Under the pieces are notes generated by a model. That model was not told the origin of the DNA. It searched no databases and worked only from the letters and a program-made list of their open reading frames with translations. Source: Eledone cirrhosa (taxonomy: Eukaryota). Taken from it: a stretch of DNA of 64,000 nucleotides. Numbering within the stretch: the stretch's first letter is position 1; each line of letters begins with the position of its first letter. Made by a program: the position numbers and the translations under genes. Where the stretch lies: NCBI GenBank assembly GCA_964016885.1, contig OZ024740.1, forward strand, positions 146,382,001 through 146,446,000, given 5' to 3'. Shown one piece after another: positions 39,850 through 63,418 of this stretch.

Positions 39850-42098
39850 GAATCAAGCTTGAATGTACATCCTGAGTGGGAAGACCGCATAGTGAATTAT
39901 CTAGTCCATAAGACTCACCCTGTAAAGACCATGGAACTGGCACGTCTTGTAAGTGTTCGTTCACGCAAAGAAGTGAATCCAACTTTGTACAGCATGGATA
40001 GACGTGGTTTGATAAGAAAGCACGGTATGCAGCCGCCAACATGGGTTATTGCCGATCCACCTGCATCTCATACAAGTTATAACCAGAATGAAAGTCATTA
40101 TTCAAGTAGTCCAGGAATGTATCAGCATGGTCCAGTATCAAGAACACCACCAAATTTCTATGCTAATAACCGTGAAAGTTATAGAGGACAGAAGACTCCC
40201 AATAATAATTACCAGCGTTCGAAACGATCAACCTATAGAAGTGAATGGCATGGTTTCTGTCCACCATCTCATATATACTCAGAAAGTAAGAGTGAATCTC
40301 TAATCTACAGTCACAGTAGTAAAGATACTGAAATTCTCTCTATTGGAACCACTAGTTCTCCAAATAGATTACGCTCAGAAAGTTGCAGCCCAGATGATTG
40401 TGAAGCCCTGGAAGCAGCGATTGCTAATTATCCACATGGTGGTGGATATGGCCAAGGCTATTCAGGACATTTCTCTGTAACTTCTGAATCTAAACAAAGT
40501 GGTAAGCCACGAAGGAGAAATTGTGATAACTTTAACATCCAAAATTCTTCAAATGGTACCATGATGCCATTAAAAAATAATGACAGGATGGTCATCCAAC
40601 AGAAAAAAATAGAGTTGCAGGATGACCATGAAAGGCATTACGATGGAAACTATCAATCATACCCTAGTAATTTTATGAACTATGCAAATCATTCTTTTGG
40701 AGATATGCCTGTTTGTTACCGTCAGATGGACCGAGAGGGTCCGGATGTGTCTCGCGTACACCTGAGTTCCTTGAAGAAAGAATCGAAGGACCTCTCGCCC
40801 CACGATCAAATCTCTCCCAAACGGAACTCAAATATAAAAGCTGGCAATTCTGACCCTCATGACCCACATGCTAAAATCATTTCCTTCCTTGATAAAACCA
40901 TGAATGGTTCTGCTAAGTCACGTGAAATAGCTAAACATACAGGCCTTTCTCTGGAAGAAACTCAAAAGCATTTGCATAGTTTATGTAAAAAGAAAATAGT
41001 CACTACTATTGGTGAAGATATTTATATAATGGCAAAGAATGCAGCCAGTTATGAAAATGAAATTCCTGCTGGAAAAGGTTCTTCATCTGCGAACTCTGCC
41101 ATGTCCCGTCAGTTTTCTGGTGGAAACCGGCAACCTCCTGCTCCTCCACATGTTCTACTGGCGGACAATGGCATCAGCTCCAGCAACATGAAAAGTGCTT
41201 ATTACCAAAGTAATAGTTCCCAAAAACAATCTGGGCCATCAGGTGAACAGAAATCAGCATCAAATCAGACAAGTAGAAATTCACATCTACCTCCTTCCCC
41301 TCATGAGCTCCTTGCAAAGGATCCAGTCTTTAAAGGAGATGTTGCTGTGTCCAATTCAAACAATTCTTCTAAGGAATTCAACCAGTCGTCATCATCTTCG
41401 TCAGCATCCTTGTCGTCCTCAACGTCAAAGAATTCTAGGTGGAACAATAACACTGCATTGGTAGAAAGCTCAAGAGCACCAGCTACTAATTCCACTTCAA
41501 CGTCATCAACTACATCATTTGCGCCAAGCACTAAGCAAAGTAATTCAAGTGCTAAGCAGTCTGCTGGAAATTCTAAGCAGACGTCATCGTCGAAACAAAC
41601 TGCTTCAAATTCTAAAGGCTCTGGGTCAAAAGGTTCCTCAGGCTCAAAGCAAGGATCTTCTAATTCCAAATCAGGTGCTTCGAGCTCAAAACAAAGGGCC
41701 AATAGTCCAAAGCAAAATGCTTCAAATAATCAATCATCTCAGTCTAATTCAAATTCCACTGTTAACTCAAACAATAAAAAGAATTCAGCTGATAATATAC
41801 AAGATCTTCTTAAGAATACATCCATTTCCTCTCCAAGTGAAACTACTGAAACTAAAACACCAACTTTAGCTGAAATCAAGGCAGCAGCAGTAGCGCAGGC
41901 GTTGGCCGACAAAGCGGCTGAGAAAGGAGCTGACAAGGCTGGTATTGACTCACTGGCACCAAATCTGCAGATCACTTCAGAGAGTTTTGCTGCCCTTAAC
42001 AAAAATCCTGTAAGTGCATTGATGGAATATGCTCAACAGCGCCATTTACCTGTTGAATTTAAGCTCTTATCACACAGAGGACCTTCTCATCGACCATT
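39850..42098 (+). CDS. ADAR: ADAR1 large coding exon: Z-alpha, disordered linker, second winged-helix domain, Ser-rich region, N-terminal half of the dsRBD
   Basis: Acceptor ttttctctcctttgtag|GAA (phase 0) and donor TT|gtaagt (phase 2). Open frame of ~750 aa. Z-alpha signature RKEVNPTLYSM...QPPTW (39871-40050). dsRBD start KNPVSALMEYAQQ...GPSHRP. Confidence 0.96.
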
Positions 42099-42389
42099 GT
42101 AAGTAGATTGCTTGTTTGGTTCATTTTTATTTTTGTCAGACATAATAATTTATTTGTTATATTCTTTCAGAGGTTGCAGATATATTTTGTAATTAAAAAA
42201 AAAAGAATTATTTGGTCTAAATTGTAGGTAAAATATTCTTCAAAAATGTACCTTGTACATGTGTACAGAAGACAAGAAGGAAGGGATTTGGTGTGAGAAT
42301 GCCGTGGGAAAGATAAGAGCAGAAATACAAATTTATGCTGGAATGTGTGTATGGTGTTGGTGTCTTGATTTCTGTAGAGTGAGTAAACA

Positions 42390-42790
42390 GTTGACGATGG
42401 TGAAACTGGTGATTAGAAAGTTTTCCCAGGATATGTCCGACAGGCAGGTCAGAGTGTTGAAGAGACAGGATAAGTTTTTGTGTGCAATAGAAAAGCTGGT
42501 TGAAAACATGGAAAACAAGGAAGTCGTGCCTATAGGAGGAGACTTGAATGGATATGTGAAACGGAGTAAGGATGGTTTTGAAGGAATTCAAGGGGACTTT
42601 CTACAGGTACGATGTGAGGAATGGAGAAGTTGAAATTATTTTTGAGTTTGCTGATGTGTTAATCTGTAACACTCAATTCTGGAAAGAAGAAAAGCTTGTT
42701 ATATACATATCAGGTGGGTTCTCATTACTTGTCAACTACTTGATGGTGTGTAGGCAAGATAAGAAGAACTTTTGGAATACAAAGGAAGAG
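42390..42790 (+). mobile_element. RTE AP-endonuclease remnant
   Basis: IGGDLNGYVKRSKDGFEGIQG...RNGE...ICNTQFWK. Confidence 0.6.
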
Positions 42791-43419
42791 GTATATAGCA
42801 CCATCTACTTGTTATTTTTAACATAAATGCATCTTTTTACAATATAACATTCACTACGTCTTGAACTCTGTATACCAAACCCTTTGCAGTCATGGCTATA
42901 CCATATGAGAAAACTGGATGCTCATGTCTGGAATATCTTTGATTTCTTATTACTCCACTGCATGTAAAATTTTAAGAAGTGAGCAGTATAGTTAATATAT
43001 TTAGTATTACTACTTTCAACTAACTGGACCTCTATTATAGAGAAGATTTAGAAGTTATATGTATGTCACATAAACAATTATTGGAAAACAATGAAGCAAG
43101 CAATTCTACTTCATCTTTAGATGTCTGTGTCAATGAAGAGAGGAGGAATGCTAGATTTACCATTACTCAATACACAATTATAGATTTCAATCAGATGGGG
43201 ATGAAGAGTTTGGAGGAGGTCTATTACTGCTCTCCGGTATGGATTGGAGATCAGATCTAGCCCATTGGTTTTTTTCTTAGTTTTTCCGAATACATACTAC
43301 TTTATATAGTATACTAGTTGCAGGTGCATTTTAATGTGACATCAGGATTAGAGAGTTTGTCATGTCTTTGGCGAGATTAAATGGGTTCCTACTCTACATT
43401 CATTCTCTTTATTATATAT

Positions 43420-44510
43420 AAATGAATGGTTTATGAGAAAGGTACAAGCCGTGTACAAAGATGCTGTTAGTAAAATGAGTGTAGGCATTGAGTTTAGTGA
43501 GGAATTCAATATACAGATGGGTGTTCACCAAGGCTCAGCTCTCAACTCACTCCTATTTATTATAGTTCTGCAGGCTATAATAGAGAAGTTTAATACCAGC
43601 TGTTTGTAGGAACTCTACTGTGCTGATTACCTAGAACTTGAGATGAATCTGCAGAAGATTTAGAGGAGAAATTCCAGATGTTGAAGCAAAACCTAGAATT
43701 GAAAGGCCTTAAAGTAAACTTAACAAACATTATCTTGTTGCCATCAGGGAAATAGCCATGCTTAATTTGCAGAAAATGAGTAGATAGAAACTCAATTTAG
43801 TGTACCCAATATAAACTGTAGGCACACAAGTGGTGTAGCAGTATCACAGGCAAGCTAACAGAAAAAGAGATTTTATGTGGTAGATGTATAGGGTTAATTG
43901 TAAGAGCACCAATAAAATTAGCTGTTTTCCATTTAGGAAGTCTCCATATTAGTAGTTGATAACTTCTATTATCTACATGACCTAATTAGCAATGGAGCAA
44001 GGTGCTCTGAAAACATAGCCAGAATAAGAACAAAGTAGAAAAAGTTTAGGGATCTACTACTTCTGTTGGCAACAAAAGGATTTTCTCTTCAAGTCTTCTT
44101 CTTGAGATTGGTGGTAGATTGTATGATACTTGTGTATGAATTGCAATGTTGCATGGTAGTAAGACATAGTCATTAGGAAGAAATGAGGTAAGCATGTTCT
44201 GCTAAATGTGTAATGATAGTATGCATGAATAACAAAGCACAAATCAGTTGAAAGAAACATTGCATAAGAGAAATCAGATGTAATGTGCAAGAGAGAAGAT
44301 TGTGCTGGTACAGATATGCCATGCATATGGAGGATGATCATTGGATGAAGAAGTGTTAGGAGTTCTAAGTAGGAAATAGCTATGGAGGAGGAAGACATGG
44401 GCAGAAGTGGTGGGAGTTGATCTCAGGATGCTGAACTTCACGGAGATGATAGAAGAAAGCCATGCTGGAGAGGACTCTTCTAACCCATGCTAGAAAAATT
44501 GATGATGATA
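43420..44510 (+). mobile_element. Decayed RTE LINE (RT region to tail)
   Basis: GVHQGSALNSLLFIIVLQAI and downstream degenerate motifs. Confidence 0.75.
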
Positions 44511-62363: not shown

Positions 62364-63155
62364 GTAAGTAAAGTACAAATTCACATCAAAATTATAATTT
62401 AATAGTCCTAGTTTATTTAACCTACTTTATAATGACATCAATACTCTTCATTTTTATTTCCAAATAATAGTGTATATTATTTAAGTTATTTGATCTATAA
62501 TTGGTACTGAAATTATCTAATAACATATTTTTTCATAACTCTCTTTTGCTCTATTTTTCTATTTTACTCTGATTATTTACAACATTTGTATCAATTCAAT
62601 AATTTTGTTTTCGTTAACTATTATAATAAGATTTAAAACTGTTGATAACGTTTTTACAATAGATTTAATTTCATTTATTTAGAAATATTACTATTGAATC
62701 TTTGCCATTTTTAGGCTGCATAGGATTGCTGTTGTTTTGAAAACCATAATCTGCTTATTTTGAGCAGCTTGTGGCATGGAAGTAACCAATTGAATATCAG
62801 AAGTATTTTAATTGGGGACCATCTTGTAAATTGCTCCACAATGGCTGGCTGTGTAGAGTGCAATATGGCAGTTGAGCATGTTACATCTATCTAGCTATCC
62901 AGTTTATTTGTATAAGAAGTAAAAAATCAAAAAATCACCAGACGGTAACCACATTTAGAGATAGAGAATGTGAATCTGATTGCCTACAGAGATCTCGGTT
63001 CTTTGAGATTCATTAAATACAGTTAGTAACTCAGAACAACTTTTGACTTAGTAATAAATGTTGCAGCTACTTTGATATGTGTATTTTGTGTTAGTCTATA
63101 TATTATATATATATATATATATATATATATATATATATATATATATATATATATA

Positions 63156-63202
63156 TTGTCTGATGATCCTGCAAGTGTGCAGGTGAAACTTCAGAGTAAC
63201 TA
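63156..63202 (+). ncRNA. Minimal type-I hammerhead-ribozyme-like motif (degenerate stem I)
   Basis: CTGATGA - T CCTGCA agtg TGCAGG T - GAA ACT tcag AGT A; predicted GUA cleavage site after 63198. Confidence 0.5.
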
Positions 63203-63324
63203 GACTCACCACTTAGCCATTAAATCAATATTTAAACTCTACTTTGGTATTGAGTACTTTTTCTTATGCCTGTCAATAATACACAAATATGTATATATAT
63301 ATGAACAAATAATTACTATTTTAG

Positions 63325-63418
63325 GTAACCGCTGTTTAACCGGTGATCATTTGAGTTTGGAAGGCAACAGTGTCAATGACTCTCATGCTGAAATAATCAC
63401 ACGCCGAGGTTTTCTGAG
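63325..63418 (+). CDS. ADAR: ADAR1 catalytic exon (HAE zinc-ligand / proton-shuttle motif)
   Basis: Acceptor ttttag|GT completes Gly. Encodes [32 protein letters not shown]. Donor AG|gtgagt. Too short to appear in the ORF track. Confidence 0.96.

Follow-up and report, generated by a model that had tools for sequence, protein, structure and literature searches.

A 64,000-nucleotide (nt) window of the Eledone cirrhosa genome (OZ024740.1, positions 146,382,001 to 146,446,000 of the forward strand) carries the central part of what is almost certainly the octopod ADAR1 gene. The long region that separates the Z-alpha domain of its product from the domain that binds double-stranded RNA (dsRBD) contains a predicted folded, degenerate winged helix followed by two copies of a PPxPxxLL-type motif. 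With good confidence, the best overall explanation is a known ADAR1 with a winged-helix-plus-motif layout shared among molluscs. A 'coleoid-unique serine-rich domain' of ADAR1 is a leading published candidate cause of coleoid recoding (PMC10278661; bioRxiv 10.64898/2025.12.15.694494). Should clams, snails and chitons have the skeleton of this region too, coleoid recoding could not be put down to the region simply being there, and the remaining candidates would be a neutralised first linker, higher serine content, an alanine-rich helix before the dsRBD, and self-editing. Gene and layout are already known; what the hidden winged helix and motif add is a modest, checkable correction to published ADAR1 anatomy, and the domain borders found here guide cut points for deletion and swap constructs. 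A literature search that covered few subscription journals returned no description of a second winged helix in cephalopod ADAR1 or of a mid domain conserved among molluscan ADAR1s.

The window is AT-rich animal DNA in which microsatellites and retroelement remnants are abundant. A 750-codon open frame occupies 39850-42099, and four exons (39850-42098, 59996-60140, 62180-62363 and 63325-63418), separated by GT..AG introns of 17,897, 2,039 and 961 nt, splice into 890 codons with no stop, as an original prediction made from the sequence alone had proposed. The product is 95% identical over its 890 amino acids (aa) to the annotated ADAR1 of Octopus bimaculoides and O. sinensis (XP_014773875.1, XP_029636177.1), which have the same exon borders and cassette exon and differ by about 5% substitutions concentrated in the disordered region; it is 92% identical to Argonauta ADAR1 and 77% to protein P0014, which is taken here to be decapodiform because it resembles the squid layout in print. 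The identification as ADAR1 made in the original prediction is borne out by this identity and by the ADAR1 type of the deaminase. So is the domain order it described: Z-alpha, a linker of about 270 aa (267 measured), a second winged helix, a Ser/Asn/Lys-rich region of about 300 aa (321 measured), one dsRBD and the start of the deaminase, with Pfam and AlphaFold in agreement. The span 39850..63418 delimits the four exons correctly but not the whole gene, which has ten coding exons across about 110 kb: coding exon 1 (55 aa; G000:C1:146352780-146352944) lies about 69 kb upstream of 39850, outside the window, and five further deaminase exons lie 5-17 kb beyond the window end. The main features are as follows.

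39850..42098, + strand: large coding exon with Z-alpha, linker, winged helix, Ser-rich region and the dsRBD's first half; in three related species contigs span it fully and end at its borders
39865..40059, + strand: Z-alpha domain, aa 6-70 (Pfam PF02295, E 1.1e-7, aa 9-69 of the large exon; alignment to human ADAR1 Z-alpha; AlphaFold confidence, pLDDT, 92-96)
40060..40860, + strand: linker 1, 267 aa, 16% Ser, 9% aromatic, net charge +3, predicted disordered (composition; AlphaFold)
40861..41043, + strand: second, degenerate winged helix, aa 338-398 (Z-domain profile, AlphaFold, fold searches, alignments)
41044..42006, + strand: Ser/Asn/Lys-rich region, 321 aa, net charge +14, predicted disordered save an Ala-rich helix at aa 673-690 (composition; AlphaFold)
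41134..41160, + strand: first PPxPxxLL-type motif (PPAPPHVLL), 31 aa past the winged helix (motif search, alignment)
41290..41313, + strand: second motif copy (PPSPHELL; motif search)
41866-41919, + strand: Ala-rich predicted helix, aa 673-690 of the large exon, just upstream of the dsRBD (AlphaFold; alignment)
42007..42098, + strand: dsRBD, first half (Pfam dsrm positions 1-30)
42099..59995, + strand: 17.9-kb intron with long interspersed nuclear element (LINE) reverse-transcriptase and mariner-like transposase remnants (Pfam; dsRBD profile; contig junctions)
59996..60140, + strand: exon with second half of the dsRBD and its KKxxK motif (Pfam; protein match; contig junctions)
62180..62363, + strand: exon with linker and deaminase start (protein match; contig junctions)
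63325..63418, + strand: deaminase exon with the zinc/proton-shuttle HAE motif, DSHAE at 63378 (Pfam A_deamin, E 1.4e-8; protein match)

What lies inside the region described as disordered? In the AlphaFold model of the large exon, pLDDT is 92-96 per 10-residue block at aa 11-70 and 341-390 and below 50 across most of aa 73-333 and 406-668, so that aa 339-400 form a folded island (pLDDT >90) surrounded by low confidence. Predicted alone, this second domain has three helices, a wing and a short fourth helix, with strands at 354-356, 384-386 and 391-394. A Z-domain profile from which cephalopods were excluded in the last four rounds matches it at 23.5 bits (E 1e-7; best of 500 shuffles 3.4), and Pfam reports weak helix-turn-helix matches at aa 342-394 (FaeA, E 6.9e-5). 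It superposes on PKZ Z-alpha with a root-mean-square deviation of 2.1 over 60 residues, a value tied with other winged helices. Three approaches were uninformative: a PDB sequence search had no match below E 0.14, ESM Atlas look-ups gave generic winged-helix clusters only, and the TOP-IDP sliding score was too flat to tell the winged helix from the linkers. The two Z-type domains differ in their recognition residues. In the first, N43, Y47, P62, P63 and W65 align to the Z-recognition residues of human ADAR1 Z-alpha, and the equivalents of N173, Y177 and W195 (PMC13136903) are all kept as N43, Y47 and W65. The second lacks the set: Q372 and H376 align to the Asn and Tyr of PKZ and the PPxW wing is absent, so the domain is predicted not to read Z-form nucleic acid.

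A similar domain is found elsewhere in the Mollusca. A profile seeded on six weak matches in other, non-cephalopod molluscs detects a winged helix in the middle of the protein in 30 of 34 named non-cephalopod molluscs, in two other proteins and in four coleoid rows, the window included. Whole-protein alignment puts the mid winged helices of molluscs and of the window in register, and in model and alignment an extra helix after the wing is common to both. A PPxPxxLL-type motif follows the mid domain within 130 aa in 31 of the 32 others (at 18-49 aa in 30 and at 79 in one), where 0.3 would be expected. Among held-out proteins with the mid domain, drawn from 36 examined of 101 matches in a homolog search, it is present in 19 of 20, at 28-35 aa (0.19 expected). 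All four coleoid sequences carry one copy at 31-32 aa and another at 83-85 aa, and in Lingula an intact Z domain is followed by the same type of motif. Many genomic frames stop at the same point in the dsRBD as the window exon, which suggests that the large exon is shared. Finally, in a 37-row tree built with longer C-terminal borders, the window domain groups with molluscan mid domains (SH-like approximate likelihood-ratio test, SH-aLRT, 95). In addition to these features, bivalve, gastropod and chiton ADAR1s share with Eledone the Z domain(s), linker, Ser-enriched tail, dsRBD and deaminase, but they often have two N-terminal Z domains, and their linker 1 is acidic, their Ser content lower and their sequence more hydrophobic.

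Several observations weigh against a shared origin of this scaffold. In four of the 34 named non-cephalopod molluscs the six-seed profile did not find the mid domain. The motif pattern was taken from the first alignment, which leaves the held-out count as the independent one. For two of six segments tested, linker 1 and the Ser-richest part, sequence comparison detects nothing outside coleoids. Fold searches with the second domain give a generic winged helix only (SelB Z 10.7, MarR-type 9.8-9.9, PKZ Z-alpha 9.8). The domain scores 23.5 bits against the Z-alpha profile versus 16.1 against the mid-domain profile, with hhalign probabilities of 96.5 and 93.8, and in a 63-row quick tree its neighbor is the N-terminal Z domain of a snail (SH-aLRT 90), while a mid-domain group supported at 96 excludes it. 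The better score to Z-alpha and the 63-row tree favor a different history, in which Z-alpha was duplicated in coleoids only and the copy, the second winged helix, decayed on its own into an analogue of Z-beta whose position before the motif is coincidence or replacement. We regard this as unlikely: position and the 31-aa spacing to the motif are as in other molluscs, the extra helix after the wing is shared, and the 37-row tree disagrees. Both trees are short, weakly resolved and prone to long-branch effects, and in neither does vertebrate Z-beta group with the molluscan mid domain. Orthology of the second domain with the molluscan mid domain thus rests mainly on position, the two trees being in conflict, and we hold a shared molluscan origin of the winged helix and motif to be probable.

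The single dsRBD invites another explanation, proposed in the original prediction and in part in the squid paper, in which the Ser-rich region is a coleoid novelty that replaced lost dsRBDs and drives extensive recoding. Could a dsRBD exon have been missed? The Pfam dsrm match is divided by the 17.9-kb intron into profile positions 1-30 and 32-66. A contig of run X22 (2,413 nt, zero mismatches) holds 41744-42100, 59996-60140 and 62180-62367 consecutively; it is read as RNA, its library type not being recorded, from unique intron bins that are empty in X22, whereas run X19 covers 30 of 30 such bins. Contigs of three related species (X1, X5 and X9) pass from 42100 straight into the first letters of the 59996 exon, the joint from 60140 to 62180 is present in contigs of X1 and X17, and the junction into 63325 is based on protein identity. 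Because transcript-like contigs join 42098 directly to 59996, a dsRBD exon is not hidden in 42099-59995, and a six-frame search of the whole window with a dsRBD profile found no further domain (the two known halves at 52.7 and 43.4 bits, the next best at 6.3); the extra exons that the original prediction had named as its possible undoing were not found there.

Nor does a single dsRBD appear to be a loss. Pfam finds one dsrm in 29 of 30 invertebrates and three in four of four vertebrates in a set of 34 proteins, and our own profile, over 53 rows, finds one dsRBD in 47 of 48 invertebrate rows and three in five of five vertebrates; P0024, P0026, P0029 and P0038 (short or redundant) and P0072 were omitted from these counts. 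Lower-ranked matches, nearly all named vertebrates, have three in 71 of 71, a set that includes the five vertebrates just mentioned. A chiton ADAR1 (P0016) is the sole invertebrate row with two dsRBDs and also the sole row with the mid domain but not the full motif. One Z domain, one dsRBD and one deaminase form the most parsimonious ancestral ADAR1 according to Grice and Degnan (PMC4323055), and earthworm ADAR1 has one dsRBD (PMC7762157). Since the single dsRBD is the invertebrate norm and likely ancestral, no dsRBD was lost in octopus ADAR1, and the suggestion that the disordered region substitutes for missing ones is not supported. Nor is a long disordered region required with a single dsRBD, because the ADAR1s of Lingula (140 aa) and Owenia (132 aa) combine one dsRBD with a short linker.

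The squid literature frames the same question. Doryteuthis pealeii ADAR1 is described as one Z-alpha, a 623-aa serine-rich domain, one dsRBM and a deaminase active in vitro, and PMC10278661 states that Z-beta is lacking and that the serine-rich domain has no homolog outside coleoids by BLAST; 'unique to coleoid cephalopods' is repeated in bioRxiv 10.64898/2025.12.15.694494. The discussion of PMC10278661 proposes RNA binding, phospho-regulation and phase partitioning, and the putative roles in targeting, condensation or phospho-regulation that the original prediction suggested had already been raised there. The original prediction was right that the layout is probably not new, for squid and Eledone share an intact Z-alpha, a Ser-rich basic region of about 620-650 aa (net charge about +20), one dsRBD, an ADAR1-type deaminase and ten coding exons with a long first intron and a big second exon (PMC10278661). 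The dsRBD is wholly in exon 2 in squid and split by an intron in Eledone. Where the paper describes the region as wholly disordered and without homologs, in Eledone it encloses the folded degenerate winged helix and two conserved motifs, which are also present in the decapodiform-type P0014. The BLAST statement holds for linker 1 and the Ser-richest part, since neither has a match outside coleoids.

Composition does set coleoids apart. The 321-aa stretch from winged helix to dsRBD is 25.9% Ser, 11.2% Asn and 8.4% Lys in Eledone; in coleoids it spans 318-322 aa with 23.9-28.2% Ser and a net charge of +13 to +14, whereas in the 32 others with the mid domain it spans 190-488 aa with 12-21.5% Ser, a net charge of -11 to +31 (positive in 26) and roughly twice the hydrophobic content. 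The linker between Z-alpha and the winged helix has a net charge of +3 in all four coleoid rows, which count as one evolutionary event, and -1 to -78 in all 32 others, of which two snails, at -1 and -6, come close to neutral. What is published as a net charge of about +20 thus comes from a basic tail of the usual molluscan kind and a linker that has lost its acidity. An Ala-rich helix, 92-100% conserved between octopod and decapodiform-type proteins and lacking a counterpart in the other molluscs of the alignment, is a candidate coleoid-specific element. Three length-bounded homolog searches returned no ADAR1 intermediate between the two coleoid clusters and other animals, Nautilus included, a result that does not amount to absence. 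On the large exon the contigs of three relatives show 15-16 A>G versus 13-15 T>C differences, uninformative on self-editing. The higher Ser, the halved hydrophobic content and the two unmatched segments speak for a coleoid novelty, as does the heavy recoding of the region in squid (PMC10278661), but the norm of one dsRBD means that nothing needed replacing, and other molluscs have a 480-970-aa Ser-enriched region in the same place with the same motif. We give that account little credence.

Is the long region then largely a neutral spacer of drifting composition, with only the folded domains mattering? Its length varies two-fold among molluscs, and within the Ser-rich part identity to the decapodiform-type protein is as low as 16-56% in several bins of 25 aa. 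Yet the winged helix (84-100% per bin), the bin of the first motif (84%) and the Ala-rich helix are conserved when octopod and decapodiform-type proteins are compared, and overall length and net charge are nearly equal in the two, which makes a neutral spacer doubtful. Under a shared molluscan scaffold, the second winged helix would likely be a copy of Z-alpha in which Z-form recognition was lost in an ancestral mollusc, Lingula having an intact Z domain plus motif. The degenerate winged helix and PPxPxxLL motifs could tentatively be viewed as a docking site for a partner protein or non-Z nucleic acid, a role that we put somewhat below even chances, and the basic Ser-rich tail would supply weak, phosphorylation-tunable RNA affinity. 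Human Z-beta, which lacks the tyrosine, is reported to bind G-quadruplexes (PMC13136903), a possible analogy for the second winged helix. Like Eledone ADAR1, vertebrate p150 has a Z-alpha with N/Y/W, a second winged helix without the key tyrosine and an ADAR1-type deaminase; it differs in having three dsRBDs, a short acidic linker of 137-171 aa and no PPxPxxLL motif in five of five checked. Acidic disordered tracts can inhibit nucleic-acid binding, which underlies a bolder and quite improbable proposal: the winged helix and motifs would be an undescribed regulatory module checked by an acidic, RNA-mimicking linker 1, and coleoid neutralisation of that linker (to +3) together with higher tail Ser would release the brake and aid extreme recoding.

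ADAR enzymes deaminate by a zinc-dependent mechanism, the dsRBD binding A-form RNA and Z-alpha the Z-form. The catalytic HAE lies in the window (DSHAE at 63378), and the zinc cysteines (PCGDG, MSCSDK) are in the downstream exons (L005/L006). The orthologous C-terminal protein of O. vulgaris scores 462 bits to human ADAR1 versus 268 to ADAR2, and in a tree that includes the genome's own paralogs and no named ADAR2, ADAD or ADAT1 reference, the window deaminase falls among mollusc and vertebrate ADAR1s, far from the genome's two other deaminases on their long branches. By bit score and tree it came out ADAR1-type; a placement with ADAR2, ADAD or ADAT1, which had been named as telling against the assignment, was not borne out. 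The product also has what PMC4323055 asks of an ADAR1, one or more Z-binding domains together with one or more dsRBDs, and it is a predicted A-to-I deaminase by analogy with squid ADAR1, whose activity is known (PMC10278661). The two other deaminase genes lie at G000:C6:13644267-13646192 and G000:C25:17349000-17358999 (L009, L010); one is ADAR2-like, with a two-exon deaminase and an intact HAE, and one is divergent, multi-exon and ADAR/D-like. With ADAR1 they match the three-gene set described in squid.

Upstream of the large exon, one further coding feature is discernible.

32767..32817, + strand: cassette exon, 51 nt (17 aa), with AG..GT flanks and a 70% match to the insert of Octopus isoforms X1/X3; a contig of run X5 joins matching sequence to 39849

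At 32313-32432 the window has a 58-60% match to the alternative first exon of Octopus isoform X3. Since the position of the annotated start codon reads GAT, not ATG, E. cirrhosa may not produce this isoform. Several copies of LINE remnants (reverse transcriptase, PHD finger), together with the frame of a mariner-like transposase that Pfam DDE_3 and helix-turn-helix profiles match weakly, occupy 4836-6602, 48873-49913 and 53440-55362, all within ADAR1 introns.

A processed ADAR1 fragment is present at G000:C25:9292360-9295220 (L002; L003:360-3220). In it the 39850 exon follows immediately on the 3' part of exon 1 and extends to window position 41773, stopping before the dsRBD; the fragment is 91-100% identical, frameshifted, and has two repeat insertions and one internal duplication. 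Contigs of run X22 match the copy including its flank, so that it may be transcribed, contig depth being no measure of expression. Fossil editing in the copy was considered and is unsupported (A>G 18/757 versus T>C 7/569 with double counts removed, Fisher p 0.15, unpolarised). The fragment sits centrally in a palindromic element whose arms measure about 150 bp and of which there are at least 40 copies, 94-98% identical; three other copies of the element have no spacer, and another (L018:490-3465; G000:C1:52895600-52899600) surrounds a stretch of about 3 kb in which there is a GIY-YIG frame (Pfam E 1e-7). A GIY-YIG frame with palindromic arms is an association that we take to be that of Penelope-like retroelements, which suggests that the arms belong to one, and such an origin could explain the capture of a spliced ADAR1 mRNA.

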